From positions 256,001-320,000 of the forward strand of contig CBDFFH010000005.1 of the NCBI GenBank assembly GCA_965246715.1: DNA of 64,000 nt. Direction: 5' to 3'. Source of the DNA: Chamaesiphon sp. Its GTDB lineage: Bacteria > Cyanobacteriota > Cyanobacteriia > Cyanobacteriales > Chamaesiphonaceae. Under the pieces are notes generated by a model, which searched no databases, was not told where the DNA came from, and saw nothing but the letters and a program-made list of their open reading frames with translations. The position numbers were made by a program, and so were the translations under genes. Positions 3,067 through 59,113 of this stretch are shown piece by piece. Every line of letters begins with the position of its first letter. The first letter of the stretch is position 1.

Positions 3067-3110
3067 AGTATGACAGTCAAATCTGAGATAATCCTGAGAA
3101 ACAGATAAGA
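3067..3110 (-). promoter_or_regulatory. 11-bp-periodic direct-repeat box plus -10 element
   Basis: Minus strand: TCTTAT-N5-TCTCAG-N5-TCTCAG-N10-CATACT. Confidence 0.65.
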
Positions 3111-3280
3111 TTTGGCGATCGATCGGACGATGTTTGTAGATCGAAGCTCGACAGCACCGGAGTGAGGAAGCAGCATTCGATTACCAAAAACTTTTACTCG
3201 ATCGGGCTGTAAAGTAGTCAGATGAAAGTGGGCCGCAAGTCATCATGTCTGTGCTCGGTTAATCTAATTGAGTCAAAGTG

Positions 3281-4039
3281 CTAACTATTAGCTTCAATGA
3301 CATTGACAGCAAAGCTCTTGTAAGCCTCGCCCATTTGCGTTGCTCTGGTGCCAGGAAAGACATGAAAATCGCCAACTTTGAGTGCTGCGAAGATGGCATC
3401 GGCAACTAAGATCGGCGGTTCGGCGATCGCACTCAGACCTGCGGCATCGCCCATATCGGTGGCGATCGGTCCAGGATGTATGCTCAAGACGATCGTGCCC
3501 TGTTCGCTCAGCGATTCGCGTAATGCTTGGGTAATAGAATATGCAGCCGCTTTTGAGGCAGCGTAGGTAGCATAGCTAGCTGACGATCTGAGTGATGCGA
3601 CAGAGTTGAGTTGGGCAAAGACACCGCCGCCATTTGCTTTCAGTACTGGGGCAAACGCTTGCGCCATGTGGATTAATCCATACACGTTGACGTTCATCTG
3701 AAATTCGAGCGCGGCGATCGCATCTTTATCCAGGGGATTACCTTCTTTAAAGACCCCCGCGTTATTGACAATTACCTGGACATCTGTGGCTATTCGAGCG
3801 GCAGCAGCGATCGATTGGGGATCGGCTAAATCGATCTGAATCGGCACGACTCGTTGGCTCAGGTGCTCTGAAAGAGAATCGGGATATTTTTCGACTAGTG
3901 GCGTGGCACTGTCCAAGTTACGCACGCCAGCATAGATCTTGGTAGCTCCGCGAGCGAGAAAGGATTCGACTAGTGCTTTGCCGATGCCCCGATTTGCGCC
4001 TGTAACTAAAATGATTTTGTCTTTGAGGTCGTAGTTCAT
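3281..4039 (-). CDS. SDR family oxidoreductase
   Basis: TGANRGIG, NNAG and YAASK motifs; AGGAG RBS before MNYDLK; carries an in-frame 24-nt insertion at 3854-3877. Confidence 0.9.
   Translation of the reverse strand: MNYDLKDKIILVTGANRGIGKALVESFLARGATKIYAGVRNLDSATPLVEKYPDSLSEHLSQRVVPIQIDLADPQSIAAAARIATDVQVIVNNAGVFKEGNPLDKDAIAALEFQMNVNVYGLIHMAQAFAPVLKANGGGVFAQLNSVASLRSSASYATYAASKAAAYSITQALRESLSEQGTIVLSIHPGPIATDMGDAAGLSAIAEPPILVADAIFAALKVGDFHVFPGTRATQMGEAYKSFAVNVIEANS
3854..3877 (+). mobile_element. 24-nt small dispersed repeat inserted at CG^ATCG
   Basis: CG|TTGGCTCAGGTGCTCTGAAAGAGA|ATCG; removal restores CGATCG and keeps the frame. Confidence 0.7.
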
Positions 4040-4162
4040 CTCAATTGCTCCTGTTGGGTTAATGTTGATACCGATCGTCACCGCAACCGCACGATAACCA
4101 GCTAATTTCATGCCAAGCTGCGACCAAATAGTCACAGGCGATCTTCGATAGCTCCAATTACT

Positions 4163-4206
4163 AGCGTGACCGCCAAAACTGAGAAAATCCTGAGAGCCAG
4201 ATGAAA
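4163..4206 (-). promoter_or_regulatory. 11-bp-periodic direct-repeat box plus -10 element
   Basis: Minus strand: TTTCAT-N5-TCTCAG-N5-TCTCAG-N10-CACGCT, upstream of the SDR. Confidence 0.65.
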
Positions 4207-4389
4207 TTTTGCGATCGATCGAGTGGCGATCGGACAAATTCACGAGCTTGCTGGCGATAATTTTGCGACACTCGATTGTTGTAAATTTACGATCGATCTT
4301 GAAATAATCTGTAGACTAAACTCATCACGATCGATCGACTGACAGCAGCTATTGAGGATAATTTCAGTGTATGGAAGAGTGCAGATTTC

Positions 4390-5232
4390 TCAGGACTTTG
4401 ATAGTTGTACCCGAACATTGCGAGCAGTCGAGCCATACCGACCTATGACTAATTCAAATTCAACCTGTACTCCTGCTGGCAACGTGCGGTACCCCTCCCC
4501 AGGAATCGCCGTGAAGTTAAAGAACACATCCTCACCACCACCATCTGGCGAGATCGTCCCACTCCCTGCTTTAAGATCGAACGATCGCACGACACCTTTT
4601 AGCACTGGCAATCTAGTCGCGCCCAAACTTGGCACACCTTCACTCCACGTTTGTTGCGGAATGCGAACTTGCTTTACCTCTGGCGTATCGTATGCCTCAT
4701 AGCGATAGTCAGTTCGCGTCGCCATCAGCGTCCGTAAATCTTGGCGTAATTCCTCGATCGACGGTCGCCCTACGAAAAACCACCCATTGTAGATTTTGTG
4801 AATGCTCAAGTCGGGATGCAACACGAAGGTATACGGTTGTGCGCGGTAAGCATACTCACCTTCGGTTTCATCTAAAATATTAATCTGCTTGATGACTTCG
4901 CGCCGTTCGTCGCATAAAAAGGGCCACTGTGCGCCCAACCCCGCGCGAAAGGCAGCTTGAACTAACGGCGGATCGACCCCAATCGTTGCCAGCTTGCCAT
5001 AATTGACAGTTAATTCGCTTTGGAACAGGACTAACTGTGGTAGTTGCTGCCGATCGCGTGGGCAAAAGAAGCCACGATAGAATACGAGAATCAACGGATA
5101 GCCATCAGTAAATCCCAGATACCGATCCATCAAGCTTGGTTGTGTCAATGTCGAGAGTTTTATCGGTTCATTGTCCTGATTTGGGAGTTCGAGATCGGGA
5201 AAGCGATCGCCTACATTCAGATTAGTTGTCAT
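4390..5232 (-). CDS. AhpC/TSA (redoxin) domain fused to a C-terminal cold-shock domain
   Basis: N-term VGDRFPDLELPNQD..LVFYRGFFCPRD; C-term GVVRSFD..GSGTISPDGGGEDVFFNFTAI..GYRTL..G.QVEFE..G..ARNV. Confidence 0.85.
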   Translation of the reverse strand: MTTNLNVGDRFPDLELPNQDNEPIKLSTLTQPSLMDRYLGFTDGYPLILVFYRGFFCPRDRQQLPQLVLFQSELTVNYGKLATIGVDPPLVQAAFRAGLGAQWPFLCDERREVIKQINILDETEGEYAYRAQPYTFVLHPDLSIHKIYNGWFFVGRPSIEELRQDLRTLMATRTDYRYEAYDTPEVKQVRIPQQTWSEGVPSLGATRLPVLKGVVRSFDLKAGSGTISPDGGGEDVFFNFTAIPGEGYRTLPAGVQVEFELVIGRYGSTARNVRVQLSKS

Positions 5233-5326
5233 AATTACTGCTTACATATTCGAGTAGGTTGGTGAGAAGTAGCTCACTTTAGAACAGCGGCGATCGAAAG
5301 TAAGCAGATCCCGATTGACGTGTCTT

Positions 5327-6673
5327 TCAAAATAACTGCCGTGCGAGCGTGGGTAATGATTCCGCAAAGGTGGGATGAATGTGCACCGAGCGTTCGAGGA
5401 CTTGCCAAGTGGCTCCAGCTTCCATCAGTGCCAGAAAGACATGTACTAATTCGGAAGTTTCATAGCCCACTAACGTTGCACCTAAAATCAGATTTGTCTG
5501 CGTGTCAACGACCATGCGGAAAAAGCCTAAATCTTGTCCCCACTCAATCCCTCGTGCGGTTTGGGCTACTTGCGTAGTGACTGCGCGAGCATTGATGCCT
5601 TGTTGCTGCGCCTGTTCGATCGTCATCCCGACACGACCGACTTGTGGCTCGGTGAAAACGGCATAGCCCAGCACCCGATCGTGACGATTCCGGTCGCCGC
5701 CTGCCAAAATCGCTTGCAAGCGGCGATAGTCTTCCCAAGAAACATGAGTAAAAGCAGGCTGTTTGGCGACATCTCCGATCGCATATACTCCCGCGCAGCT
5801 AGTCCCAAATCGATCGTCGATTTTCACATAGCCGCGATCGTCTAATTCAATCCCAGTCGCCGCACAATTCAATGCTGGAGTATTGGGCTTGCGTCCGGTG
5901 GCAATTAGCAGGGCTTCACCGTCGAGCGTCTTGCCATCATCAAGCGTGAGGGTAAATACGCCATTGGTATGTGCAACTCGATCGACTTTCGTGTTGAAAT
6001 GCAGTCCGATGCCATTGCGATCGAATGCCTCCGCCATCACGCTGCTGACATCAGCTTCTTCCTGAGCCAATAATCGATCGCCCCGCACGATTAATTCTGT
6101 CTTGCTGCCCAACTGTGCCATACCCTGACCTAATTCCATCGCGATATAGCCACCCCCAATGACGATTAGACGCGGCGGAAGCTGTTTTAGATCGAAGAAA
6201 TTACGGTTGGTCAGATAAGGCGTTCCCGCTAACCCAGGCAGATCGGGGATGCTGGAAGATGTGCCTGTGTTGATAACGACAATCGGTGCTTGCACAGTTA
6301 CCCCGCCGCCAGTTACCATCCGCTCTCCGACGAACGCGGCTTCAGTACAAACGACTTTCACCCCCGCACCTTCTAACCGCTTTTGTACACCCTGATTGAA
6401 CTGACTGCGAATGTCCTGTACCCGCTCCATCACTGCCGTAAAATCCATCTCTACCTGGGTGTGGATGCCAAGCTTATCGGCTTGGTGTGCGCGACCTGCG
6501 GCATGAGCGGCGGCGAGAAATGCTTTAGAAGGCGTGCAGCCATAGTTAACGCAACTGCCGCCTAAAGCATCGCGCTCGAATAAAACGACTTTTTGCCCAG
6601 CTTTAGCACAGTCAACTGCGAAGGGAACGCCGCCTTGACCGCTACCGATGACGATTACATCTACTGTTTCCAT
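5327..6673 (-). CDS. Pyridine nucleotide-disulfide oxidoreductase (RclA/MerA-like, no C-terminal CC)
   Basis: GSGQGG, GGSCVNYGCTPSK, GGGYIA, GD and HPTFAE motifs. Confidence 0.88.
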   Translation of the reverse strand: METVDVIVIGSGQGGVPFAVDCAKAGQKVVLFERDALGGSCVNYGCTPSKAFLAAAHAAGRAHQADKLGIHTQVEMDFTAVMERVQDIRSQFNQGVQKRLEGAGVKVVCTEAAFVGERMVTGGGVTVQAPIVVINTGTSSSIPDLPGLAGTPYLTNRNFFDLKQLPPRLIVIGGGYIAMELGQGMAQLGSKTELIVRGDRLLAQEEADVSSVMAEAFDRNGIGLHFNTKVDRVAHTNGVFTLTLDDGKTLDGEALLIATGRKPNTPALNCAATGIELDDRGYVKIDDRFGTSCAGVYAIGDVAKQPAFTHVSWEDYRRLQAILAGGDRNRHDRVLGYAVFTEPQVGRVGMTIEQAQQQGINARAVTTQVAQTARGIEWGQDLGFFRMVVDTQTNLILGATLVGYETSELVHVFLALMEAGATWQVLERSVHIHPTFAESLPTLARQLF

Positions 6674-6865
6674 AAATACCTGTTACCTGTGGTGAGGAGG
6701 ATGAGCTAGCTATTCTCTAGACTAACAAATGCTTTTTATGACCTTGGCAGCCTATTTCAGTCTGGATCTTTGCTGGAGAGAGTTCCAGCGAACTTCGATG
6801 TTAGCTCGTTAAAAACACAATTAAGACTTTTCAAATATCCGTTGAGAAGCTCAGAAATACCAAAT

Positions 6866-8149
6866 TCACACATCGATCGCGAGTGCAGTCTTCGGTCGAG
6901 CAATACAGATGAGCACCGAGCCTGGTTCGATCTCCGCAGTCGGCGGTTGGAGATATTCCACTTCGCCCTCAGTCAACTCACACATGCAAGTACCGCAAAT
7001 TCCTTGCCGACAACTGTAGGGCGGGTTGAGACCATTTGCTTCTGCCAATTCCAGAATACTGCCATCATCAGGCTGCCAGGTGACTGTTTGACCAGAACTG
7101 GCAAACGTAATTTCGGCAGGTTCGGCGGTTTGATCGCTCGATCCTGTTTCAGCAGCCCCAGCTTTACTTGAGGTAAACACTTCAAAGAAAATTCGGTGTT
7201 CGGCTACTCCCGCTTGTTTGAGTCCATCCCGCAACGATTGTAAAAATGGTGGTGAGCCACACAGGTAATACTCTGCTTCTTGCTTAACCAAGCGTTGCAA
7301 CAGAGCCGTATCGACATATCCGGTACTTTGATAGCGACCTCGATCCTCCGCTGTGGGGCGACTGTAGGCATAGTGAACCGTCAGATGGGGATTTTGCTCG
7401 TCGAGTTCCATCACCTCATGTCGAAATGCTTGATGATTGCCATCTCGCGCACCATGCACGAACCAAATGGTTCGATCGAGCTGGAGTTGAGTCGCCGCTT
7501 TTGCCATACTCATCATCGGCGTAATGCCCACGCCATTACTGACTAGCACTGCTGGCAAGGATTGCTGCACGTCCAAAATAAATTTACCGCTCGGTGGTTT
7601 AGCTGCAATGACCGTTCCTTCGATCGCGAGATCGTGCATGAAGTTAGATGCTAATCCTGCTGGTACATCCTGTCCTTCCGGCATCCGTTCCCGCTTAATC
7701 GACAAGCGATAACGGTCGCAAGGCTCGACATAATCTGACAAAGTATAGGTACGAATTACGGGTTTTGCCTGTCCGGGAATATCTAACTTGATGGTGAGAT
7801 ATTGACCAGGCTTGAAGTTTGGAATCTCCTTTTTATCTTCAGGCTGTAAATAAAAGGACGTAATCTCTTCGCTCTCCTTAACTTTGCTGGTCACGACAAA
7901 ATTGCGCCAATCTTTCCAACCACTCCGATCGTCAATGGTGCGATCCTGCTGGCTATTCGGTTTCGATTTCAGACCGAACACCGCGCCACCAGCCGCTCCC
8001 ACTAGTACAGCATACACAGCCGCACGATAAGCATCGGGGGCTTTATCTTTGGTCGATCCGAGTGCCAAGCCAAATGCTAATGTCAGCACCGATCCGACTG
8101 TTGCAGCTCCGGCTAGACTTCTAATTAATGGGTTATTATTTTTAAGCAT
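6866..8149 (-). CDS. Membrane-anchored FAD/NAD(P) reductase with C-terminal 2Fe-2S ferredoxin, copy 1
   Basis: RTYTLS, GVGITPM, YLCG and CRQGICGTC..C motifs; two N-terminal hydrophobic segments. Confidence 0.88.
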   Translation of the reverse strand: MLKNNNPLIRSLAGAATVGSVLTLAFGLALGSTKDKAPDAYRAAVYAVLVGAAGGAVFGLKSKPNSQQDRTIDDRSGWKDWRNFVVTSKVKESEEITSFYLQPEDKKEIPNFKPGQYLTIKLDIPGQAKPVIRTYTLSDYVEPCDRYRLSIKRERMPEGQDVPAGLASNFMHDLAIEGTVIAAKPPSGKFILDVQQSLPAVLVSNGVGITPMMSMAKAATQLQLDRTIWFVHGARDGNHQAFRHEVMELDEQNPHLTVHYAYSRPTAEDRGRYQSTGYVDTALLQRLVKQEAEYYLCGSPPFLQSLRDGLKQAGVAEHRIFFEVFTSSKAGAAETGSSDQTAEPAEITFASSGQTVTWQPDDGSILELAEANGLNPPYSCRQGICGTCMCELTEGEVEYLQPPTAEIEPGSVLICIARPKTALAIDV

Positions 8150-8210
8150 CGTCGCCTCCTAGAGCGCATAATGTAGTTTACGTATTGTGCGGAGCGGATC
8201 GAACATTACA

Positions 8211-10447: not shown

Positions 10448-10491
10448 AAAATAACCATTAAACCTGAATCAGTCCTGAGTAGCACATAAAT
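10448..10491 (-). promoter_or_regulatory. 11-bp-periodic direct-repeat box plus -10 element
   Basis: Minus strand: ATTTAT-N5-ACTCAG-N5-ATTCAG-N10-TATTTT. Confidence 0.55.
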
Positions 10492-10894: not shown

Positions 10895-11332
10895 TCAATT
10901 TCTTCCTCCAAATAGTTGGAGTTCGACGGCATTAAGATAAGCCCGATCTATTTGAGTTTCTGGCGATAAATCCTTTGCCTCGATTGCAGCTTGCACTAAA
11001 TCTTTTGCAGCAATTCGACCGCTGGAAAAATCGGTACGCAACGATCCAAAACTGGAAATTCCCTGTGCTTTATAGGCACCCTGATATGCTCGTGAAGCTA
11101 ATTCAAAGGGAGTGATTTCAGCAGCATTTGCATTCATAACTGTAGCGAAGGTTCGACCGCCTCGACCTACTGCTTTTGAAGTAGGATCTGAGGAACTAAT
11201 TGCTGTATCGGTAGCATTGGAGTTCATCGCCATGATGAAGGGATGGTCTCCTTGCCCTACTGCTTTTGCCGAGGTAGCTGCCGATAGAGATAGGGTGAGA
11301 ACAGAGAGACTAAGAAGAATAAAGCGTTTCAT
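10895..11332 (-). CDS. Secreted hypothetical protein, family A copy 1
   Basis: Signal peptide; PF.L...AYQG.Y..QGI and AKDLV.AAI..YLNAV motifs shared with 21174 and 21678. Confidence 0.8.
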   Translation of the reverse strand: MKRFILLSLSVLTLSLSAATSAKAVGQGDHPFIMAMNSNATDTAISSSDPTSKAVGRGGRTFATVMNANAAEITPFELASRAYQGAYKAQGISSFGSLRTDFSSGRIAAKDLVQAAIEAKDLSPETQIDRAYLNAVELQLFGGRN

Positions 11333-11379: not shown

Positions 11380-11412
11380 ATAATGTCAGATGATTATGAA
11401 ATTAAGCTGAGT
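11380..11412 (-). promoter_or_regulatory. 11-bp-periodic direct-repeat box plus -10 element
   Basis: Minus strand: ACTCAG-N5-TTTCAT-N10-CATTAT. Confidence 0.5.
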
Positions 11413-11552: not shown

Positions 11553-12266
11553 TTAAATGCCACCAAACCATTCATAGCCTTGGTCTTCCCAATAGCCACT
11601 TCGTCCCGTGGGTATCTGACTGCTAAACGTCACCTGTGTTACCCATTTAGATTGTTTATAGCCCAATTTAATCGGTGCGGCGAGGCGGATTGGTGCGCCA
11701 TTATCGATCGGTAGTGGTGCCCCATTCTTACTACTTGCAAGTAGAGTCTGAGGGTGTAGAGCCGAAGCTAAATCCCAACTTTCATAATATTTATCCGCCG
11801 ACTGAAAGATGACATATCGCACACTCGGCTTGGGTTTGACCAGCATCGCTAAATCCCGCAATCTGACTCCACCCCATTGCACGATCGCCGCCCAACCTTC
11901 CACGCAGACGTGTTGAATTACCATTGACGCTTGGGGAAGTTTATTCAATTGTGGGAGCGAAAGCCTAATTGGATTATCTACTTCACCATCAATTATCAAT
12001 CGATAGGCATCCAAATCCAGTTTTGGATTGCCTTCAGCACTATTGATAATCAAAGCTTTAGGATCGATCGCACTCACCGGATATTCAGGAATGAGTAATT
12101 GGGGTTTAACTAATAATTCCTCGAACGGTTGATTCAGCGGTTCGGTAAGATTACCGATCCGTTCGGCAAGTTTATCGTCACTACAACTGCTAAGTAAATA
12201 ACCGATACCAGACATTCCCAGTAGTTGCAGGGTTTGCCGACGATTGAGCCGAGCGGGAAGAATCAT
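11553..12266 (-). CDS. Sulfite-oxidase-family molybdopterin oxidoreductase (MsrP/YedY-like), predicted Tat lipoprotein
   Basis: NRRQTL twin-arginine signal, LSSC lipobox, HVCVEGW Mo-Cys motif, GAPIRL..P.KLGYK..KW. Confidence 0.85.
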   Translation of the reverse strand: MILPARLNRRQTLQLLGMSGIGYLLSSCSDDKLAERIGNLTEPLNQPFEELLVKPQLLIPEYPVSAIDPKALIINSAEGNPKLDLDAYRLIIDGEVDNPIRLSLPQLNKLPQASMVIQHVCVEGWAAIVQWGGVRLRDLAMLVKPKPSVRYVIFQSADKYYESWDLASALHPQTLLASSKNGAPLPIDNGAPIRLAAPIKLGYKQSKWVTQVTFSSQIPTGRSGYWEDQGYEWFGGI

Positions 12267-12298
12267 AAAATTATAAATTATGAGTTATGAATTATGAA

Positions 12299-12901
12299 TT
12301 ACCAGGGACGAAACATCGATTGAGTTAACTTCAATCCACCAGCCTTAATCCCCATGATTAGATGAACCAAGATAAATATTAAAGAAATCGGTACGGTCAA
12401 AAAATGTACCGTGCGAAGAATTTGCCAATTGATAAATAAGCCAGAGAGCAAATGCAATTGAGCTGGTTTATACATCGCTAAACCTGACGTAATTGCCAGG
12501 AGCATGACAGGGATAATTCCTGTATAAACCAGTCGATGCCAAGCATAAGTCTTTCGTTTGGGATTTTGACCGACTTGCAATGCCTTGAGATCTTGATCGG
12601 AAAAGAACCGTTTTTTCCACCGTTGAGTGAGAAAAATATAAATTCCATAAATCAGCAAGGTAAAGGCAAACACCCACATCACAGCAAAGTGCCAATCTCT
12701 ACCACTAGCCAAATAACTACCTAAAGTCGCCCATTTCGGTATATGCCAACCGGCTCTCCCGCCAAACACCGGATTAGCATTATAAATCGTTAACCCGCTG
12801 CCCATCATCATCAACAAGCTGATAATTAACAAACCATGCAGAATTTTGATAAAAGTCTGCTGTTGGGGCAGTGGTGGAGATTTAGGTTTCTGCTTATTCA
12901 T
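12299..12901 (-). CDS. Cytochrome b/b6-domain membrane protein, probable partner of the Mo enzyme
   Basis: Four TM helices with candidate heme His (LHG, WHF, VHF, VHL). Confidence 0.82.
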   Translation of the reverse strand: MNKQKPKSPPLPQQQTFIKILHGLLIISLLMMMGSGLTIYNANPVFGGRAGWHIPKWATLGSYLASGRDWHFAVMWVFAFTLLIYGIYIFLTQRWKKRFFSDQDLKALQVGQNPKRKTYAWHRLVYTGIIPVMLLAITSGLAMYKPAQLHLLSGLFINWQILRTVHFLTVPISLIFILVHLIMGIKAGGLKLTQSMFRPW

Positions 12902-12932
12902 TTTATTGTCATTCGATTAAATGCTAAAAAAC

Positions 12933-13625
12933 TTAGATGGGTAACTTGGGAAATAGTGGTAACAACCACAATTGGATCTCAACATCCCAACCTAATAAAA
13001 TCGCGATCGCGGTGCCTGTCATCAAAATCCCACCAATTCGTTGCAACTTAGCAGTATGCGGAATTATCCATCGCCAAGATTGACTGAGATACCGACTAGT
13101 ATAAGCCAAAATCAGTAAGGGAATTCCCGCTCCTAGCCCGTAGAAAGTTAATAAGATTAAAGCAGCTAAAATGTCATGTTTGACGGCTGCTAAAACTAAA
13201 ATACTCCCTAATGCGGGGCCAGCGCAGGGAGTCCAGAGCAAGCCTAATTGCGTCCCGATCGCAAATTCGCCCCACAAGTTCGGTTGCTCTGGCTCTCGAA
13301 AATTACCAAATTGCCAACGGCTAAATACCCAATAACTCAACTTGGGGAAAATTGATAACAGACCAAAGAAAATTAGTGCAGCGATCGCGACACCACGTAA
13401 TATATTTGCAAATCCAGCGAACCATGAACTAGCAATTCCGAGTAGGCTACCGATCGCGGCAAACCCACAGATTAAGCCCGCAACTAATGCGATGGGGCCA
13501 AATCGATGAGTTTTAAAAGACCGTCCTAAAACTAACGGTAAGATCGGCAGCACACAGGGAAAAATAATTGTTAATAATCCTCCCAAGATAGCCAGACTTA
13601 AAGAGCCGAATGATACTCCATTCAT
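12933..13625 (-). CDS. ccdA: CcdA/DsbD transmembrane electron transporter
   Basis: PCVLPILP and WTPCAGP.LG motifs; six TM segments. Confidence 0.88.
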   Translation of the reverse strand: MNGVSFGSLSLAILGGLLTIIFPCVLPILPLVLGRSFKTHRFGPIALVAGLICGFAAIGSLLGIASSWFAGFANILRGVAIAALIFFGLLSIFPKLSYWVFSRWQFGNFREPEQPNLWGEFAIGTQLGLLWTPCAGPALGSILVLAAVKHDILAALILLTFYGLGAGIPLLILAYTSRYLSQSWRWIIPHTAKLQRIGGILMTGTAIAILLGWDVEIQLWLLPLFPKLPI

Positions 13626-13631
13626 GCTGTG

Positions 13632-14225
13632 TCACCCTAATAACTGACGAATTTTAGTTTCGGTTTCAGCGTAAGCACCTTCGCCAATATGGTCGTACAC
13701 GATTTGACCCTGGCGATTGGCTAAAAATAAGTGCGGCCAATATTCATTATTGTAAGCCTTCCAAGTTTCAAAGCCGTTATCTACCGCGACGGGATACTTA
13801 ATATGGCGTTTACTTACTGCTTGTTTGATATTACCTAGCACGCGCTCGTAGGGAAATTCGGGCGTGTGTACGCTGACGATCTTTAAACCTTTGTCAGCAT
13901 ATCGATCGTGCCAACCGACTAAATGCGGGATAGTCGCCTGACAGTTGCTACAGGCAAATGTCCAGAATTGGAGCAAGACAACATTCCCACGTAAACTCGC
14001 CAGTGTAAGCGGTTCGGTATTGATCCAATTGCTAATTCCTTGGAGTTCTGGCAGGGTTTTACCAGCAGATTCGAGCGCTATTTCATTACTGGGTGCTGCG
14101 GATGTGGGAGCGAAGGTTTTGGCGTTAGATGGTGCTGGTTGCAATTTCTGTCCGATGGTAGTGGCGATGCCAGCACCAACGATGCCTAATCCTAAGTATT
14201 TGAGAATGTCGCGTCTGTGGCTCAT
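13632..14225 (-). CDS. Exported thioredoxin-like (DipZ-type redoxin) protein, copy 1
   Basis: HRRDIL Tat-like signal, FWTFACSNC, VHTPEF, YWP. Confidence 0.88.
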   Translation of the reverse strand: MSHRRDILKYLGLGIVGAGIATTIGQKLQPAPSNAKTFAPTSAAPSNEIALESAGKTLPELQGISNWINTEPLTLASLRGNVVLLQFWTFACSNCQATIPHLVGWHDRYADKGLKIVSVHTPEFPYERVLGNIKQAVSKRHIKYPVAVDNGFETWKAYNNEYWPHLFLANRQGQIVYDHIGEGAYAETETKIRQLLG

Positions 14226-14482: not shown

Positions 14483-14851
14483 TTATTTGACTTCTGCGGG
14501 TGCGAACATTTCGACTTTACCCTTTCTCAAGGCAACTACTACGTCATAGTGAGCGCAGTAGGAGAAAGTATAATCATTAGTCTTGTTGTACAAATTCACT
14601 ACATGACCGCCGCCACCAACCTGAATCCCAATTGGTTCGAGTTCGCCGAAGAAGAACCGACGGAGCGCGTCACCACCACCAAATTTCCCTTTTTCTTGGG
14701 TAATTAGAGCGATTTTTTGGTCGAAACTAAGTCCGGTAACGTCTTGAGCGTGAGCGGTACCGAACTGAGGATTGACCAAAGAATCGGGTACTCCAGCGAG
14801 GGTCGTGATGCCAACTAGGAATGCAATTGCCAAAGAACTAACTGCTTTCAT
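14483..14851 (-). CDS. Secreted hypothetical protein, family B copy 1
   Basis: Signal peptide; GD.LR..PIGIQ.GG.G.VVNLY..C..DVVVA..KG..EVK shared with 15676; GGAG RBS. Confidence 0.8.
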   Translation of the reverse strand: MKAVSSLAIAFLVGITTLAGVPDSLVNPQFGTAHAQDVTGLSFDQKIALITQEKGKFGGGDALRRFFFGELEPIGIQVGGGGHVVNLYNKTNDYTFSYCAHYDVVVALRKGKVEMFAPAEVK

Positions 14852-14992
14852 GTTCGATCTCCAATTTAGTTAAGTAATTGTTTCCAGCACGTCTTGGCTG
14901 GGTATGTCTTAATTATTAACTGGAAATTTGGGTCTTAAATTAGCAGTGGTTAAGGGATAACTGTGTGGATGATGAGAGTTTTAGGGAGTAAT

Positions 14993-15020
14993 CTTTAGGA
15001 ATTTCTCAGCAAATTCTCAT
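14993..15020 (+). promoter_or_regulatory. 11-bp-periodic direct-repeat box
   Basis: CTTTAG-N5-TCTCAG-N5-TCTCAT. Confidence 0.5.
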
Positions 15021-15527: not shown

Positions 15528-15598
15528 CTGAGAATTAGCTGAGAACTAACTGAAAGATCTAGATCCAAAAACTCAGGAAACTCTTAGTCTCAGTTCAG
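15528..15598. promoter_or_regulatory. Back-to-back 11-bp-periodic repeat arrays
   Basis: CTGAGA/CTGAGA/CTGAAA at 15528/15539/15550 and ACTCAG/TCTTAG/GTTCAG at 15571/15582/15593. Confidence 0.65.
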
Positions 15599-15675
15599 GA
15601 GTGGTTCAATCCTAACTGCGATTCTATAAGTAATCGCTCTCATACCTCTTACCACTCAAAATTAGGATTGATAAC

Positions 15676-16050
15676 ATGAAACTCACTTCTCTTCTCGCTA
15701 CCACGATCGTCAGTAGCGGCATGGCAATTTCGCTAGCTTCCTTACCAGCATTTAACCCCAATTCTTTCCAGGCATCCGCCCAAAGCATGAGCGCAAGTAA
15801 AAGTGAAAGCCAAGGCAAGATCGACCAAATTCTGGCTATCAAAGGTAAACCTGGAAGTGGGGATTTACTCCGCAAACTGTACCCAAAAGACCTCAATCCA
15901 ATTGGAATTCAAACAGGTGGAGCGGGTATGGTAGTTAACCTATACAGCAAGAAAGATAACACTACACTTTCACTCTGCACGACCTTTGATGTAGTTGTTG
16001 CAGCGAAGAAAGGTCGAATTGCTAAGTTCAAGCCAAGTGAAGTTAAATAA
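15676..16050 (+). CDS. Secreted hypothetical protein, family B copy 2
   Basis: Signal peptide; paralog of 14483-14851. Confidence 0.8.
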   Translation: MKLTSLLATTIVSSGMAISLASLPAFNPNSFQASAQSMSASKSESQGKIDQILAIKGKPGSGDLLRKLYPKDLNPIGIQTGGAGMVVNLYSKKDNTTLSLCTTFDVVVAAKKGRIAKFKPSEVK

Positions 16051-21080: not shown

Positions 21081-21135
21081 TCTTATCAATTTCTCAGGAA
21101 TCTATCAAGACAGACTCAGGTAAGAGCCTCATAGT
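21081..21135 (+). promoter_or_regulatory. 11-bp-periodic direct-repeat box plus -10 element
   Basis: TCTTAT/TCTCAG/TATCAA/ACTCAG at 21081/21092/21103/21114, then N10-CATAGT. Confidence 0.7.
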
Positions 21136-21587: not shown

Positions 21588-21642
21588 TCTTATCAAATTC
21601 TCAGCAATCGATCGCTATTATCTCAGGCAAGAGTCTGATGAT
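21588..21642 (+). promoter_or_regulatory. Duplicated repeat-box promoter
   Basis: TCTTAT 21588, TCTCAG 21599, TCTCAG 21621, then N10-GATGAT; near copy of 21081-21135. Confidence 0.65.
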
Positions 21643-27636: not shown

Positions 27637-27702
27637 TTTCATCAAATTCTCATTCTAATCTCAGGATTGGTTCAGGACTGGCTCAGATCGATCGGGCATG
27701 AT
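27637..27702 (+). promoter_or_regulatory. Five-copy 11-bp-periodic repeat box plus -10 element
   Basis: TTTCAT/TCTCAT/TCTCAG/GTTCAG/GCTCAG at 27637/27648/27659/27670/27681, then N10-CATGAT. Confidence 0.75.
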
Positions 27703-34361: not shown

Positions 34362-34940
34362 ATGACAGCACGAGTAAAAGAAATCCTCAGTTGGTACGGT
34401 AGCGACAATCCTGGCACCCTAACCAACATAGCCCGCTTACTCAATCACGGTAAACTTGCTGGCACGGGCAAATTAGTAATTTTGCCCGTAGATCAGGGAT
34501 TTGAACATGGCCCCGCTCGGAGTTTCGCCGCCAATCCAGCAGCTTATCATCCCCATTATCACTTTGAACTAGCGATCGAGGCCGGATGCAATGCTTATGC
34601 GGCTCCCCTTGGTTTTCTCGAAGCTGGAGCCAGAGACTTTGCTGGACAAATTCCGTTAATTCTCAAAGTCAACGACCACGACGTGTTAGTAGATGAGCCA
34701 GACCCGTTCCAGGCATTGACTGGTAGCGTCCAGGATGCTCTCCGGCTGGGCTGTGTGGGCATTGGTTTTACGATCTATCCTGGTTCTACGCATCGCCTAG
34801 AAATGTACGGTCAAATCCGCGCCTACGCTGAAGAAGCCAAGCGGCATGGGTTAGCCGTAATTATTTGGTCTTATCCGCGCGGATCGAGCTTGAGTAAAGC
34901 AGGTGAAACCGCGATCGATGTTACGGCTTATGCGGCTCAT
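34362..34940 (+). pseudogene. fbaB: Class I fructose-bisphosphate aldolase, 3'-truncated
   Basis: ILPVDQGFEHGP, WSYPRG; homology stops at DVTAYAAH, before the Schiff-base Lys region. Confidence 0.85.
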
Positions 34941-35560
34941 TATTGGAGCGATATCCCGAGCTTCAATTGTGCGGCATTGCGGGAACTTACGAGCAAGCAT
35001 TAGCACAATTACCCTCGGCAGAATTAGAAAATCGATTGCTGATTTTCTTAGGCAGTACCTTGGGTAATCTCACTGACGAGCAACGCAGCAGTTTCCTCGC
35101 CCAAATTAAACAGGCACTCCAGCCTGGAGAGTTTTTCCTACTAGGTGTCGATTTACAAAAACCGATCGAGACGATTGAAGCTGCCTACAATGACAAGCCA
35201 GGTGTGACGGCTAAGTTTAATCTGAATATTCTCAGTCATCTCAATCATCGCTTCGATGGTAACTTCAATCTCGACCTCTTCAAGCATTTGGCTTTTTACA
35301 GCCACAAACAACACCGAATTGAAATGCACTTACGCAGTCTGGCAACTCAAACTATTTTTTTGAAAGCATTAAACTATCAATTTACTATTAATGCTGAAGA
35401 AACAATCCATACGGAAATTTCACGTAAGTTTCACTTACCGACACTGGTAGATATTCTAGCAACTCATGCTTTTAAGCCTTTGAAAATATGGACAGATCCA
35501 CAGGATTGGTTTGGGTTACTGCTATGTCAACGTCAATGTACTAGCGATGATTGTCCTTGA
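34941..35560 (+). pseudogene. egtD: L-histidine N-alpha-methyltransferase, 5'-truncated
   Basis: FLGSTLGN, GVDLQK, AYND..GVTA.FNLN, RIEMHL and HTEISRKF motifs; N-terminal SAM-binding part missing. Confidence 0.85.
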
Positions 35561-42464: not shown

Positions 42465-42612
42465 ATCGTCTCACTCACGTTCACGCCACCTTTTTTAATG
42501 ATTTAATCCTGGCTTCTGTGCATATTCTTAGCTCGTTCACAGCGAAATTTAAGGAAACTTTTTGATAATAGAAAAGTAGAAAATAATCTTTCCTTAGAAG
42601 ACACCAATCGCT

Positions 42613-49270: not shown

Positions 49271-49368
49271 AGTATCTCCAACTGTCCTGAAACCTTTGTG
49301 AGCCAAACCCTAAAATTACCTAAATTTATTCTGAGAACGTTCTCATGCCAATCTCAGCAATTTATCAG
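49271..49368. promoter_or_regulatory. Back-to-back 11-bp-periodic arrays plus -10 element for the Met-rich gene
   Basis: Minus: TCTCAG (49331) ... GCTCAC (49298), TTTCAG (49287)-N10-GATACT; plus: TCTCAT/TCTCAG/TATCAG at 49341/49352/49363. Confidence 0.7.
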
Positions 49369-49404: not shown

Positions 49405-49959
49405 CTATCGATCGCGTCGTTCCAAACGCACATCAACCTCGCGTTCTACATAATCCCATTCCTTGCTCGATCGCATCCGCACGAGTAATTCATCAAATGC
49501 CTGGGTATGTTCTGGCGCAAATTCAAACCAGGTGAGAAAATCAAAGGGTTCGCCGATGTCGCGACAGTGGAGTAGCCGACGGGCAACTCCAGGCAGATAG
49601 TCCATCCCCACAGCGGTGTGATGCGACTCTTCCTCAAAAATCGCCCTTCGTTCGTCTTTCGCCATTTCCCACCATTGGAGCGATTTTTTAATCGGAATCA
49701 GCACCGCACAAATTGCGTCCGATCGATTCAATACGGGCTGAATTGCTTTTAATGCCATAACTTCATCGTGCATGGCATACCGAACATTACTGCTAAAGCC
49801 TTGGAGAATCCACGAACTATCTAATGGTAATTCCTTAATATCATCATTCACTACATCTACTCGTTCTACAAATTCTAGATTAGCACCGAAAATACTTCGC
49901 ACATCTACTACGTGCCATGTGCCTTGGTTGCCACCAATAAACGAATATCTGTTGTTCAT
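49405..49959 (-). CDS. cld: Chlorite dismutase, short clade-2 type
   Basis: YSFIGG, SNVRY, LIPIKKS..WW, SHH (proximal His), VARRL.HCR (distal Arg), FDFLTWFEF, EW.YV.RE. Confidence 0.9.
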   Translation of the reverse strand: MNNRYSFIGGNQGTWHVVDVRSIFGANLEFVERVDVVNDDIKELPLDSSWILQGFSSNVRYAMHDEVMALKAIQPVLNRSDAICAVLIPIKKSLQWWEMAKDERRAIFEEESHHTAVGMDYLPGVARRLLHCRDIGEPFDFLTWFEFAPEHTQAFDELLVRMRSSKEWDYVEREVDVRLERRDR

Positions 49960-52724: not shown

Positions 52725-52730
52725 TTTCCA

Positions 52731-52901
52731 GGTAATATCCCGATTTGGGGTGATATCCAGAAAGTTTCCGTATATCATCCTAAATTAGCGTGATATACGG
52801 AAAGTCTTTGCAGGACATAAGGCTTTTAGAGAAAATTTTTCCGTCTATCACCCCATTTGGGGTTATTATACAGAAAGTTTCCGTCTAATAAATAGTTGGG
52901 C
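52731..52901 (+). other. Putative integron attI-like site
   Basis: Repeated TTTCCGT(A/C)TA motifs and a 13-bp IR (52765-52803), ending in the core site GTTGGGC at 52895. Confidence 0.5.
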
Positions 52902-54252: not shown

Positions 54253-54341
54253 TACTCTGATAACCCTACCTGATTTACCTTTAAAACATGAGCTACGATT
54301 CCAGCTTTTCTCACTCATGATCTTCATTGTCAATGGCAGCA

Positions 54342-54426
54342 GCCCAACAATTCAAATGCAGCGGACAGTTGAGAGCTGCTGGTACTGAGTTTAAGGTTTT
54401 ACCGCCGCTGATTTGAGGCGTTATGC
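54342..54426 (+). other. Integron attC site
   Basis: R'' GCCCAAC; L'' TCAAAT(G)CAGCGG pairs with L' CCGCTGATTTGA leaving one extrahelical G; R' GTTATGC. Confidence 0.78.
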
Positions 54427-54603
54427 GACTTAGACTATCGATCGATACAAATATTTGAAAATTGCCTGTCAGATATTAATAGTTAGACTTTTTAAGATTG
54501 TCGATCAGTCAGAGCTTTGGTGTCGATCGCATCCATCGTAACTAATGGTGGTAACGATAGAGAAACGGCGATCGCTCAACTACTAGATAAATTATGTTTA
54601 ACT

Positions 54604-55137: not shown

Positions 55138-55238
55138 AGCAAGATCCTCGTAGAAGAATTTTGGATTGTGGATTAAATAAGGGTGGTAGCTTTGCGTTTA
55201 GACTGAATAAAATCTAGATGCAATAGAAATTGAGATCG

Positions 55239-56660
55239 CTACTTTTTGGGTGCCATCCGATCGAGTAAAGTCGGCATCCCTGTCGAATTCATCTGTTGTT
55301 GAAACTGTGTCGGTTGGGCGGCACGCCAGATCAGTGGCGTGGCGATGAGGACTCCTGCGGCAATGGTTGCCATCCCTGAGAGCCAAGGCGTGCGACCCAA
55401 TCTGTGGGAGTGAAAAGGTTGATGCTGTTGAAAGATTTCGTCAGTCAGCCAATCGGCAGTAACTTTGACGTTACGCCAGATGGTGGGTAGTAATTCGAGA
55501 TAGGTAGCCGTGCGAACTAGATGTCCTGGTTGACCTTTGATAGGGAATTTATCGAACAGGTTGGCAACCCCTTCATTTAGCCCCAATTTCATTAAGGTGC
55601 CCCGTAGATGCACTGTAGCTGTTACCAGGGGTTTGTCCTCCACGATTGCTTGTAAATTGTAGGCGATCGCTTTACCTTGTTGATACGCAACTTGGGCGGT
55701 AGGCGGCTGCGGATCGTCACTATTAGTAGCGCAATCTCCAGCGGCAAATACTTCTGGAAAATCGGGCAATTGCAACGTCGGGATGACGAATAATCGCCCC
55801 TTGAGATCGCGATATTCTGGTTTACTAATTGGTAACTCCATCAATAACGGATGGGGTGAGGTTCCCGCTGTCCAGGCAATCGTGCCAGCTTTGATGGAGT
55901 AGGTGCGCTCGCCCCGTTTGAACTCTACTGCATCAGGATGAATGGCGGCAACTGCGGCATCGAATAGCAATTGAACACCCCGCTGTTTGAGCGCACGGTA
56001 GGCATTAGGGCGCAATTTACTATTGATATCGCCTTTGAGCAGTTCGCCGCTGCGGTTGATGAGCACTACTCTTATTTCATCGACATCGCCGCCGAGATCT
56101 TCGTACCACAGGGGCAACAAATCGCCCAAGGTGCAGGCTAATTCGATCCCCGCAGGCCCCGCGCCAATAATTGCGACTGTCAGTAACGCACACCGTTCCT
56201 GGGGGTCTGGAGTCATGACTGCTTGTCGTAATTGGGCTTGTAACCTTTCGCGTAAAGCGATCGCCTCTGCACCAGATGTCAGCGGCAGTGCGTACTCCGC
56301 CGCACCAGGGGTATCCAGATAAGTTACCTTACTACCCAATGCCAGCACCAAGCGATCGTAAGCATAATCTCGTCCAGAAGCGAGTGCCACCCGCTGGCGG
56401 TGCAAATCGATCGATTTTACAGTGTCTTGCACGAAACTAACGCCCGATTCGGCGAGCAAGTCGGCATAGCGCGGATGAACTTGGCGAGCGTGAAGTTCGC
56501 CGCTGAGTAGTTCGTAGAGGAGTGGCTTGAAACTAAATCGATCTTGTCGATCGATTAGGACGATCGGTTGTTGGTAGTTTTGGCGGCTCAGATGCAAGGC
56601 TGTAAATAGCCCGACAAAACCGCCGCCTAAGATCAGAGTTGGATTGGATTTCTGATTCAT
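55239..56660 (-). CDS. NAD(P)/FAD-dependent oxidoreductase (type II NADH dehydrogenase-like)
   Basis: GGGFVG, FKPLLYE, GAGPAGIE, GD and PPTAQVAYQQG motifs. Confidence 0.88.
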   Translation of the reverse strand: MNQKSNPTLILGGGFVGLFTALHLSRQNYQQPIVLIDRQDRFSFKPLLYELLSGELHARQVHPRYADLLAESGVSFVQDTVKSIDLHRQRVALASGRDYAYDRLVLALGSKVTYLDTPGAAEYALPLTSGAEAIALRERLQAQLRQAVMTPDPQERCALLTVAIIGAGPAGIELACTLGDLLPLWYEDLGGDVDEIRVVLINRSGELLKGDINSKLRPNAYRALKQRGVQLLFDAAVAAIHPDAVEFKRGERTYSIKAGTIAWTAGTSPHPLLMELPISKPEYRDLKGRLFVIPTLQLPDFPEVFAAGDCATNSDDPQPPTAQVAYQQGKAIAYNLQAIVEDKPLVTATVHLRGTLMKLGLNEGVANLFDKFPIKGQPGHLVRTATYLELLPTIWRNVKVTADWLTDEIFQQHQPFHSHRLGRTPWLSGMATIAAGVLIATPLIWRAAQPTQFQQQMNSTGMPTLLDRMAPKK

Positions 56661-56699
56661 AATTTGAGCAGAGGTACAATACCATTTGAATCTGCTGTT

Positions 56700-56824
56700 A
56701 GTATGACTTGAAAATCCAGGCGATGAATGATTTTGAGCTAAACATTGGCTGAGAAATTCGACCGATTACACTCATAAACTATTCAGCAATTTCTCATGAG
56801 AAACTCAGGCTAGGAGTTTACCAT
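56700..56824. promoter_or_regulatory. Divergent pair of repeat-box promoters
   Basis: Plus: ACTCAT/ATTCAG/TCTCAT/ACTCAG (56770-56808)-N10-TACCAT; minus: TCTCAG/GTTTAG/AATCAT/GCCTGG-N10-CATACT. Confidence 0.72.
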
Positions 56825-56977
56825 TAATAATCGTAAAAATATTTTGATAAATTAAACAACCCTAGAAATATGGCTTGCAGCTATGAAATTTTACTTGTCC
56901 AAGCATAATACCTCATTCGATCGATATATTTTTCCGACATCAATTATTTACCAACTATTTATTGACTAAAATAAATT

Positions 56978-57442
56978 GTGAGCAAGAATATAATTTTCAA
57001 TCTATTCCGATGGCTGACGATCGGGATTATCATTATTAATTTAATAGCTTATATGGATCTAGCTGAAAGTAGAAATATTTCGTCGCCACAAGAGATTCGC
57101 GCGATCGTCGAGCGAGCTAAAAATGCCTGGGTAGCACGCGATGCCGATGCTCTGGCGCAGTTATTTACACCGGATGCCCAGCTCATCGTCCCCGGTCAAC
57201 GATGGCAGGGACAGGCTAAAATTCGGGAAGAAGTTGCTAAGTTTTCGCGACTGTATACCGATGTCCAAATTACCATCCACCGCACGATCGTCGATGGCAA
57301 TCACGCGGCAGTAGAATGGCATTATGAGGATACCGAAAAAGCTACGGGGAAACGTAGCCAAGCCGATGATGCGATCGTCATTGAGGTCAAAAACGGTCGG
57401 ATTAGTTATTGGCGAGAGTATTTCGATACCAGTGGTAAATAA
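56978..57442 (+). CDS. SnoaL/NTF2-like protein with N-terminal signal or TM segment
   Basis: DADALAQLF..DA, AVEW and G.I.YWREYFD motifs. Confidence 0.85.
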   Translation: MSKNIIFNLFRWLTIGIIIINLIAYMDLAESRNISSPQEIRAIVERAKNAWVARDADALAQLFTPDAQLIVPGQRWQGQAKIREEVAKFSRLYTDVQITIHRTIVDGNHAAVEWHYEDTEKATGKRSQADDAIVIEVKNGRISYWREYFDTSGK

Positions 57443-57501
57443 GCGAGCGTTTAGAAAGTTATGCTAGTAGTGTAAGTATTCCTAAATGCACGTTTTAGAG
57501 A

Positions 57502-58020
57502 TTAGGCAGCGATAAATTTCATCGCTACTCCGTTCATACAATATCGCAGTCCAGTGGGTTTCGGGCCATCCTCAAATACATGTCCTAAGTGCCCCCCACA
57601 GCGACGACAATGGACTTCAGTTCGAGTCGCACCGAAGGATGTGTCTACGGAAGTTTTAACTGCATTAGCGATCGGTGCATAGAAACTCGGCCAGCCAGTA
57701 CCGCTCTCAAACTTGGTTTCGGAAACAAACAGCGGCAAGTTACAGCCAGCACAGGCAAATTTACCCGTGCGATGTTCTTGAGTCAGTGAGCTAGTGCCAG
57801 CCCGTTCTGTACCCTCTTTTCGGAGTACCTCGAATTGAGCTGGAGTCAGGATCTTACGCCACTGAGCTTCAGTTTTAGTAACCTCGAATTTACCTAATGT
57901 TTTTGCGTTGGCATAGCCTCTCTGAAATAAAATCGATTCAGATCTTCTGGATGAAAAAAATAGCGTGCTAGCAGCACTAAGTGGTACGAGAGAAGCAAAT
58001 AATAAAGTTCGTCTGTTCAT
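57502..58020 (-). CDS. msrB: Peptide-methionine (R)-S-oxide reductase with Tat signal
   Basis: MNRRTLL; KFESGTGWPSF, HLGHVF.DGP and RYCMN motifs. Confidence 0.95.
   Translation of the reverse strand: MNRRTLLFASLVPLSAASTLFFSSRRSESILFQRGYANAKTLGKFEVTKTEAQWRKILTPAQFEVLRKEGTERAGTSSLTQEHRTGKFACAGCNLPLFVSETKFESGTGWPSFYAPIANAVKTSVDTSFGATRTEVHCRRCGGHLGHVFEDGPKPTGLRYCMNGVAMKFIAA
57908..57931 (+). mobile_element. 24-nt small dispersed repeat at CG^ATCG
   Basis: GCG|TTGGCATAGCCTCTCTGAAATAAA|ATCG; in frame in the msrB leader. Confidence 0.7.
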
Positions 58021-58075
58021 TTTTTAATTAGTTAGTTTAGATATCTCTACAATCGGCAGAAGCTAAATTAAAGCT

Positions 58076-58834
58076 CTAACCTTTTTTAATCAGCGTGGGG
58101 AATTGTTGACGGAGTTGGGCTAGTTTTGGCAGATCGAACCTGACGATATAGAATTGAGTAGGATTACGCTCGATAAAATTTTGATGATAATCTTCAGCCG
58201 CATAAAACTCAGCTAAGGGTACTATTTGGGTCGCAATTGGTTCTCTGAAAATGCGAGCTTTGTTCAGCCGATCGATATAATCTTTGGCTACTTGCTGCTG
58301 TTCGGAGCTGGTAAAAAATATTGCCGATCGATACTGGGTACCGCTATCTGGCTCCTGGCGATTTACCTGCGTGGGATCGTGAGCGATGAGAAAGTAAATC
58401 TTCAATAACTGTCCGTAGGAAATTTGAGTAGGATCGTAAGTAATTTTAACCGCCTCTGCATGACCTGTCGTACCAGTGCTGACGAGATCGTAGTTAGCAG
58501 TTACCGCAGTGCCACCAGAGTAACCAGAGACAACATTAGAAACACCTTTAAGATGTTCAAATACTGCTTCTACACCCCAAAAACAGCCGCCAGCGAGGAC
58601 GATCGTTTGTTCTCCTTTGACTTTAGCGGCGGGAATATCAACTGGCGGATCGATTTTCATGCCTGCTAAAGATACTGGAGCCGATTCAGCAGTAGGACTA
58701 GAGAAAATCGTGTGCGACATAATGCCAAAGGCAACTGCGATTAGTGACACGATCGAGAGGCTAAATACGAATCTATAGTTATGTGACATCATAGGCGAAG
58801 TGGTAAGTTTAGACGGGGTAAATTTAGCTTTCAT
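58076..58834 (-). CDS. msrA: Peptide-methionine (S)-S-oxide reductase with N-terminal signal or TM segment
   Basis: GGCFWG, GHAE, QYRS and AEDYHQ motifs. Confidence 0.95.
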   Translation of the reverse strand: MKAKFTPSKLTTSPMMSHNYRFVFSLSIVSLIAVAFGIMSHTIFSSPTAESAPVSLAGMKIDPPVDIPAAKVKGEQTIVLAGGCFWGVEAVFEHLKGVSNVVSGYSGGTAVTANYDLVSTGTTGHAEAVKITYDPTQISYGQLLKIYFLIAHDPTQVNRQEPDSGTQYRSAIFFTSSEQQQVAKDYIDRLNKARIFREPIATQIVPLAEFYAAEDYHQNFIERNPTQFYIVRFDLPKLAQLRQQFPTLIKKG

Positions 58835-59015
58835 TTGCGATTTTCCTAATATTTGGATGGCTCTATTATTTTCTAGAGGACAGTAGAAATCTGCTCTAAA
58901 CCCATAACAACCGATCGATTAGATCTACGAGCAGAACGTTCGATCGGATTCATTTATGTAGCGATTTATGGTCAGATAAATACTGTGAAGCTGACAACAT
59001 TAGCTTAGGAATTTA

Positions 59016-59113
59016 ATTATCTCCGCTCGCACTAGAATTTATCTGAGAAAAGACCGAGAACATTCTAAGTTTTTTCTGAGAGTTTTCTTATGGCATTCTC
59101 AGCAATTTCTCAG
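59016..59113. promoter_or_regulatory. Back-to-back repeat arrays upstream of msrA-msrB
   Basis: CTAGAA/CTGAGA/CCGAGA/CTAAGT/CTGAGA at 59032/59043/59054/59065/59076 (minus strand, N10-GATAAT); TCTTAT/TCTCAG/TCTCAG at 59086/59097/59108. Confidence 0.72.

Follow-up and report, generated by a model that had tools for sequence, protein, structure and literature searches.

A CTCAG Box Class in a Chamaesiphon Stress Island and Its Candidate Rre28-Family Regulator

Introduction

The 64,000-nucleotide stretch of Chamaesiphon sp. DNA considered here, referred to below as the window, carries short boxes repeated at an 11-bp period in front of many of its genes, and the question it raises is which protein reads these boxes and to what end. 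The window is G000:C5:256001-320000, where G000 is the Chamaesiphon genome under study and C5 its contig; labels of the same form (G401, G425, G189, G167, G273, and others) denote sampled cyanobacterial genomes, and L numbers denote extracted loci or regions. A sequence-only reading of the window had listed box arrays at 16 positions and had proposed that one OmpR/PhoB-type activator, encoded elsewhere, switches on glucan breakdown, pentose phosphate enzymes, and envelope methionine (Met) repair together. Judging from sequence comparison, we consider it probable that the boxes are conserved, 11-bp-spaced operators bound by RR-A, a response regulator of the Rre28 family, and that RR-A activates its own promoter together with others of a mobile stress island, about a dozen in all.

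The Repeat Motif and Its Geometry

The motif was assessed without a matrix, by comparing the 16.5 kb of intergenic DNA in the window with 200 dinucleotide shuffles. The pair YTCAK-N6-YTCAK was found 17 times, whereas the shuffles averaged 0.87 (maximum 5). By period, there were 17 pairs at 11 bp, 11 at 22 bp, and no more than three at every other period from 7 to 24. When a pair at 11 or 22 bp had to be followed by ten nucleotides (N10) and an nAnnnT hexamer, the predicted -10, ten occurrences were counted against 0.19 in the shuffles (maximum 3); these are start positions, and one promoter may count twice. The distance from the last box to nAnnnT peaks at a gap of 10 (10 cases), with a gap of 8 as the runner-up (6 cases). 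Elsewhere in the genome, 1.64 Mb of intergenic DNA has no peak at 11 bp (57 vs. 42-167 at other periods), so the signal is a local one. The core is CTCAG, 28 of the 38 window cores ending in G, and the predicted -10 begins with C or G at 11 of 13 window sites. Direct repeats with an 11-bp period, and a last repeat at the -35 position at a fixed distance from the predicted -10, are what is expected of an OmpR/PhoB-activated promoter, and both are found here.

Arrays are present at all 16 of the positions listed earlier, where the coordinate of a minus-strand site is the low end of its -10 hexamer. Eleven of these sites had been described as a last box followed by N10 and nAnnnT; nine have a good last box, while the last slot is degenerate at 56700 and 59016, where the -10 position is nevertheless kept in relatives. 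Of the arrays thought to lack a clean N10/-10, the operator facing 14851 does lack a clean -10, whereas 15528-15598 fits the rule, with TTCAA as its last box and a -10 at 15620-15625. The arrays at 49341, 59086, and 14993 turned out not to be separate promoters; each is the inverted upstream half of a larger operator, namely the 49271, 59016, and 14851-facing operators, respectively. This emerged when each region was printed in 11-bp register: at 49341, 59086, 15528, and 14993, three inverted boxes immediately precede a series of up to five direct slots, share its register, and are followed through it by N10 and the -10. In these compound operators the best matches tend to be inverted boxes one and two, the fifth slot, and the final two slots, and such operators are located at the Met-rich, msrA, and regulator operons as well as at family-B (famB) genes.

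A Candidate Regulator Beside the Window

The activator that had been placed outside the window has a good candidate 12.7 kb beyond its end, where the suggested search for OmpR-family genes near boxes leads to RR-A, the last gene of an operon that carries the same operator (Table 1). RR-A has receiver and Trans_reg_C domains with the acidic pocket, Asp, Thr, and Lys all kept, and its closest named homologues are from Chamaesiphon; G000 has 14 OmpR-type DNA-binding domains. A HAMP kinase, HK-A, is encoded 4.3 kb from RR-A. An insertion sequence (C5:325781-326727) lies just upstream of the box of HK-A, and a second HK-A copy, 90% identical, is found on C55 (C55:32026-33459). The regulator region is partially duplicated at G000:C13:13599-21257, with operators intact and RR-A frameshifted, and G425:C3 holds a similarly split copy.

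A matrix trained on the window has most of its top outside matches less than 15 kb from the window or on the partial C13 duplicate. Six of seven out-of-sample promoters fit the pattern of box, N10, and nAnnnT, the promoter of HK-A being the misfit. Two of the six precede Met-rich proteins with GDAMK repeats, encoded ahead of a second msrB-msrA pair, and one of these proteins passes the TIGR02953 cut-off; two precede EamA-thioredoxin (Trx)-CcdA-cytochrome b-MsrP-like operons, and two precede famB-led operons in which the regulator gene comes last. With a matrix built instead from famB promoters of 8 other genera, the promoter of the RR-A operon ranks first among 3757 G000 gene heads, and 11 of the top 30 heads fall in the window (37 heads there, divergent pairs counted twice). 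Boxes also lie upstream of kinase or kinase-regulator genes in L006, L257, L262, and L263. Such kinase-upstream boxes were seen at 11 of 23 clade A or other loci against 1 of 10 in clade B, an unfair control given that clade-B kinases are usually operon-internal.

RR-A falls below the cut-off of each named family model that it resembles, and so is not assigned to NblR (NF045914, its best model, 284.4 against 300), CopR/RppA (237.6 against 250), or HprSR (185.3 against 353). Its best match in G167, one-way and at 64% identity, fits both published primers for Rre28 with 0 mismatches (PMC4361706, Table 1). The Rre28 family is present in 87 of 401 cyanobacterial genomes (E<=1e-85). In a quick tree, RR-A belongs to clade A (SH-aLRT, the Shimodaira-Hasegawa-like approximate likelihood ratio test, 90) and RR-B (C5:229934) to clade B (100); C42 and L152 form a further branch (100), which we take to be NblR, and the CopR-type proteins form a separate one. 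The tree places the Rre28 branch without resolution relative to clades A and B; RR-A itself sits in a subclade of which most members are 77-86% identical to it. An early lead, Hik10-Rre3 (Sll0649), was dropped once the best match fit the Rre28 primers. The TetR, MarR, Crp, AraC, and SigJ-type sigma proteins encoded in the window were set aside on the known symmetry of their sites and a lack of linkage. Anabaena alr5188 and alr5182, considered as possible orthologues, were set aside and not used as evidence.

Conservation of the Operator Across Genera

Homologues of famB occur in 38 of 401 sampled genomes, and 30 famB loci were compared, that of G000 included. The operator is present at 20 of these 30 promoters, in 10 genera, and at 19 of the 20 an nAnnnT lies exactly 10 nt past the last box, the twentieth being one base off. 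Fourteen have GATGCT as the -10, which TG usually precedes. An nAnnnT at N10 after other slots was found at 0 of 20 promoters for slots 4, 5, 6, and 8, and at 5 of 20 for slot 3. Nine of the ten remaining famB promoters have no boxes; eight of these nine face a gene whose start looks to be of the LysR type. A response regulator at least 78% identical to RR-A is encoded in 19 of the 20 box-bearing genomes (one of them partial) against 0 of the other ten, a comparison in which kin are not independent. Within the genus, the good box cores are identical at 401 of 445 positions (90%) and the A and T of the -10 at 35 of 36, against 590 of 828 (71%) between boxes and 123 of 180 (68%) in the spacer. 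Across 16 regions picked around RR-A, famB, or GH63 matches, island genes recur near RR-A and HK-A with boxes upstream. The family-B proteins (window 14483-14851 and 15676-16050; L001:14419-14784) share one invariant Cys across 36 aligned sequences and, as products of the first gene of the regulator operon, may modulate the kinase.

Promoters and Genes of the Window

The promoters are collected in Table 1. The 10448 site has an additional in-register box downstream of its proposed -10. The 15528..15625 operator and the 27638..27702 promoter are conserved in both G401 and G425, and the weaker 42527..42569 site, which is absent from the earlier list, is found again in G401. Weak box pairs upstream of 49959 and 60753 have no clear -10.

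Table 1. Operators, promoters, and regulatory genes (window coordinates unless prefixed with C5)
Feature	Position	Strand	Description
GDE1 promoter	3067..3109	-	Three direct boxes, N10, -10 CATACT; ~290 nt before glucosidase GDE1 (645-2777)
SDR promoter	4163..4205	-	Weak -10 after three direct boxes and N10; copy of the 3067 promoter
GDE2 promoter	10448..10490	-	Two to three direct boxes, N10, -10; before GDE2 - ferredoxin reductase - RclA/MerA-like - peroxiredoxin/cold-shock domain (Prx/CSD)
Family-A promoter	11380..11411	-	Two direct boxes, N10, -10; before exported protein (10895-11332)
MsrP-like operon	11553..14225	-	Trx - CcdA - cytochrome b561 - MsrP-like molybdoenzyme; no box directly upstream
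Family-B operator	14923..15020	-	Decayed compound operator with three inverted boxes, a single good direct box, and no clean -10; before 14483-14851
Family-B operator	15528..15625	+	Compound operator: three inverted, direct boxes, N10, -10 GATTCT; before gene 15676
Family-A promoter	21082..21135	+	Four-slot direct array, N10, -10 CATAGT; before gene 21174
Family-A promoter	21589..21642	+	Duplicate of the 21082..21135 promoter; before gene 21678 and GDE3
GH63 promoter	27638..27702	+	Five direct boxes, N10, -10 CATGAT; before GH63/MGH1-like hydrolase - tal - zwf - glk
Thioredoxin promoter	42527..42569	+	Three slots, N10, GATAAT; before thioredoxin - Crp - GAF kinase
Met-rich operator	49271..49368	-	Compound operator (three inverted, five direct slots, N10, GATACT), including the 49341 array; before Met-rich exported protein - Trx - folE
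Shared operator	56700..56824	divergent	Common to ndh2-doxX (-) and SnoaL-like gene (+)
ndh2-doxX -10	56700-56705	-	Degenerate last slot
SnoaL-like gene -10	56819-56824	+	Preceded by four boxes
msrA operator	59016..59113	-	Compound operator (three inverted, five direct slots with the last degenerate, N10, GATAAT), including the 59086 array; before exported msrA-msrB
HK-A	C5:326845-328365	+	HAMP kinase
RR-A	C5:332693-333367	-	OmpR-type regulator; last gene of famB-DUF4079-RR-A
RR-A operon operator	C5:334847-334944	-	Full compound operator

The gene labels given earlier agree with Pfam and NCBIfam scans of 68 window open reading frames, with some cautions. The MsrP-like molybdoenzyme (88.8 on the MsrP model, cut-off 207) and the RclC-like protein both score under the cut-offs of their families. 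For the exported proteins of families A and B, no Pfam, NCBIfam, or Atlas family matches. The genes labeled GDE or glucosidase belong to the amylo-alpha-1,6-glucosidase and MGH1-like families, and such a match does not fix the substrate, so that glucan breakdown is not established as an output. Envelope methionine repair is supported in part: msrA-msrB is boxed and a paralogue of the window MsrP-like operon, 1.6-5.6 kb past the window end, has a perfect box, while the MsrP-like operon of the window itself has none directly upstream.

Several further features of the window are recorded here. A cold-shock domain is fused to a peroxiredoxin-like domain at 4390-5232. At 34362-35560 a class I aldolase gene and egtD are both truncated and abut each other, and the G401:C2 match skips about 830 bp there, which suggests a deletion in G000. 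A short chlorite-dismutase-like gene at 49405-49959, with a weak box pair upstream, recurs beside island genes in other cyanobacteria. At 52725-52887 a 50-nt unit with internal inverted repeats occurs three times, an arrangement that resembles a recombinase resolution site. An AraC-family gene at 59284-60850 is cut by IS1, of which G000 has many nearly identical copies.

A Mobile Island

Over much of its length the window is collinear with G401:C2, a 447-kb replicon whose RR-A is 97% identical, and the window also has matches on G425:C1, a 154-kb replicon with an RR-A 93% identical. On G401:C2, 12 box places fall in an island of about 102 kb that contains RR-A and is flanked by integrase-like genes; the 80 kb that follow have 2. 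Integrase-like open reading frames, labeled from their sequence, are found on C5 of G000 at 217 kb and 335 kb. There is no tRNA at the island ends, the sole tRNA of contig C5 being at 131 kb. In the 6.1-Mb G000 genome, where the HIP1 octamer is plentiful, strict-pattern intergenic matches number 17, of which 8 are in the island and 2 at the duplicate RR-A locus on C13. The gene content of the GH63 operon is not fixed, as zwf is missing in G401 and tal is missing behind the GH63 gene in G425. The pentose phosphate link is therefore strain-specific, and the general link proposed earlier is not established.

Mechanism, Signal, and Rival Explanations

In the mechanism that we propose, HK-A would sense an envelope signal and phosphorylate RR-A, which would bind box pairs as head-to-tail dimers, the last pair over the -35 position recruiting sigma-70 polymerase to a weak -10. 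At compound operators, the strong inverted upstream pair and the middle pair would add cooperative binding, and the box on the operon of RR-A itself would provide positive feedback. The predicted outputs are exported Met-rich proteins, MsrA/MsrB, and the Trx-CcdA-cytochrome b-MsrP-like chain, together with glucoside hydrolases and glucose-oxidizing enzymes as a possible source of reductant. Envelope protein oxidation is our leading candidate for the signal, put forward tentatively and with drying or osmotic stress close behind. HK-A-side kinases keep periplasmic Met residues (Met84 and Met113 in 26 of 28 each, Met156 in 20, and Met161 in 22). We hold the assignment at this level because clade-B kinases carry Met too and because drying or osmotic stress is just as good a fit to the sugar, aquaporin, and EamA genes.

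A number of results weigh against this reading. Genome-wide in G000, the strict pattern is weak overall (23 matches vs. 14 in the reversed control), and in G189, which has RR-A, the genome-wide count is 7 against 7 in the control. The counts overstate independence, since kin genomes are included and promoters are duplicated: 3067 and 4163 are 84% alike, 21081 and 21588 are 80% alike, and the Met-rich, msrA, and regulator-operon promoters are mutually homologous, which leaves fewer independent sites than are listed. No orthologous promoter for 3067, 4163, 10448, or 11380 was found in the two relatives compared. Target homologues in other genera are mostly boxless, a forward pair scoring at least 14 being present at 3 of 20 GH63, 4 of 30 family-A, 0 of 5 msrA, and 0 of 2 trx-operon loci. 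In G000 the promoter of HK-A carries a single box that lacks a -10 at N10, clade-B kinases also carry periplasmic Met (mean 4.5 vs. 6.1), and in G273 the operator is present although the best response regulator found is only 67% identical to RR-A. The tree is a quick one, with clade A at an SH-aLRT of 90. Lastly, the recognition helix is nearly identical in RR-A, NblR, and Rre28, and close in RR-B, so sequence cannot assign the binder and the assignment rests on linkage, autoregulation, and co-occurrence. Overall, the conserved core of the regulon is small, and the version in this genus is an expanded one.

The similarity of these helices, with RR-B 63% identical to RR-A, raises the alternative that the boxes are read by other or several related regulators, such as core-genome NblR, RR-B, or CopR/RppA, with RR-A only one contributor. 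We think this improbable. In its favor, the G273 operator stands without a detected RR-A, and the geometry of a pair, N10, and a -10 recurs elsewhere: a TTCAT pair with the same 11-bp period lies beside the RppA/CopR-type gene of G000, and on G401:C2 a third box class is grouped around a gene for a multidomain OmpR protein. Such geometry is thus generic to cyanobacterial OmpR proteins, and it is the CTCAG class that goes with RR-A. No pair scoring at least 10 lies upstream of 12 nblA loci, which counts against NblR; RR-B loci use TTCAT-N6-CTCAT, whereas the window cores mostly end in G; a 20-kb RR-B region of G401 has no box scoring at least 14; and the nine boxless famB promoters belong to genomes without RR-A. 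It would take still more to explain the arrays as relics of a duplicated promoter cassette, or as repressor sites, with no joint activation. That several promoters are mutual copies, that one operator looks decayed, and that the C13 copy of RR-A is frameshifted would all suit such an origin, but boxes and the A and T of the -10 are kept while spacers diverge, both within the genus and across 10 genera, and two box promoters in a scanned 6 kb have no canonical -35; we regard it as very unlikely.

A more serious possibility, though still one that we do not favor, accepts RR-A as the regulator and takes the regulon to be one of drying, osmotic, or general stress, in which the hydrolases free glucose from compatible solutes and Met repair is one branch rather than the trigger. 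Targets and neighbors include MGH1-like and trehalase-like hydrolases, glucokinase, glucose dehydrogenase, an aquaporin, and an EamA transporter, and hydrolase genes adjoin RR-A in G145, G044, and G263. Yet the compound operators sit at the Met-rich, msrA, and regulator operons, the island includes RclC-like, RclA-like, and chlorite-dismutase-like genes (Pfam/NCBIfam), and the Met conservation of the kinase parallels that of HprS. At the other extreme, HK-A/RR-A could be the first cyanobacterial two-component system that senses methionine oxidation, borne on plasmids and islands together with a regulon in which envelope Met repair is coupled to glucoside breakdown and the supply of reductant. 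Activation would then go through a higher-order complex undescribed for OmpR proteins, built on two dimer sites in tandem and an inverted one upstream, all in one helical register; taken as a whole, this bold version is unlikely.

Two neighboring systems were observed along the way. At G401:C2:95000-140000 (L374-L376), a box class with N10 and a -10 precedes apparent copper-handling and fermentative sugar genes around a gene for a 705-aa multidomain OmpR-type protein, and a second undescribed regulon is possible there. At G000:C5:226969-232042 (L004), a clade-B module has a Cys-repeat thioredoxin gene facing cupin-like - kinase - RR-B genes, with a TTCAT-N6-CTCAT box before a spondin/RTX-repeat gene.

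Relation to Known Systems

For one Rre28 subclade, these results provide a concrete predicted binding motif, a promoter geometry, a candidate cognate kinase, and a target list. They point to how cyanobacteria may guard envelope proteins from oxidation, and multi-box promoters with a weak -10 could serve as inducible parts. No description of the CTCAG motif or its regulon was found in the full-text literature searched, as judged by title and the start of the abstract and with most subscription journals outside that literature. A possible similarity to the hexamer repeat of the mycobacterial MprA box was considered but not found in print. The passages of PMC5650626 available to us hold no statement of an MprAB box.

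The nearest named relative, Rre28 (Sll0396) of Synechocystis sp. PCC 6803, has the same length as RR-A (224 aa) and a near-identical recognition helix. Its downstream function is described as undefined, and it is named as a high-influence regulator in the parts seen of a network study (10.64898/2026.06.09.731130). The RR-A subclade differs in being linked to famB, DUF4079, EamA, and HK-A, and G167 has 0 strict-pattern matches with only a weak pair near the gene, so the RR-A regulon cannot be transferred to Synechocystis. CopRS/RppA is likewise an OmpR-type pair with a direct-repeat box; the CopR site, TTCAT-N4-5-TTCAT, controls copper genes according to the available part of PMC4182526, whereas window cores mostly end in G.

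A possible parallel in function is HprSR (YedVW/HypVW)-msrPQ of Escherichia coli, in which a two-component system controls periplasmic Met repair and, in the portion seen of 10.1101/2021.09.09.459708, periplasmic Met residues matter for the kinase HprS. Here the molybdoenzyme is below the MsrP cut-off, and the regulon is larger and includes sugar enzymes. The SigF/NrsF-yedYZ-mrpX system of Azospira suillum also places an exported Met-rich scavenger and a molybdoenzyme reductase under one regulator (PMC4436054, seen in part), but does so through an extracytoplasmic function (ECF) sigma/anti-sigma pair and a four-gene regulon, in contrast to an OmpR-type operator and about a dozen units here. 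The class of mechanism is ordinary, textbook OmpR activation, and what appears to be new is the motif, the regulon, and the candidate regulator. Activation by PhoP and PhoB involves between one and three tandem dimers, each arranged head to tail, which overlap the -35, and the passages of PMC11825685 that we draw on describe tandem dimers only, whereas here the upstream pair is inverted and keeps the same 11-bp register across 10 genera.

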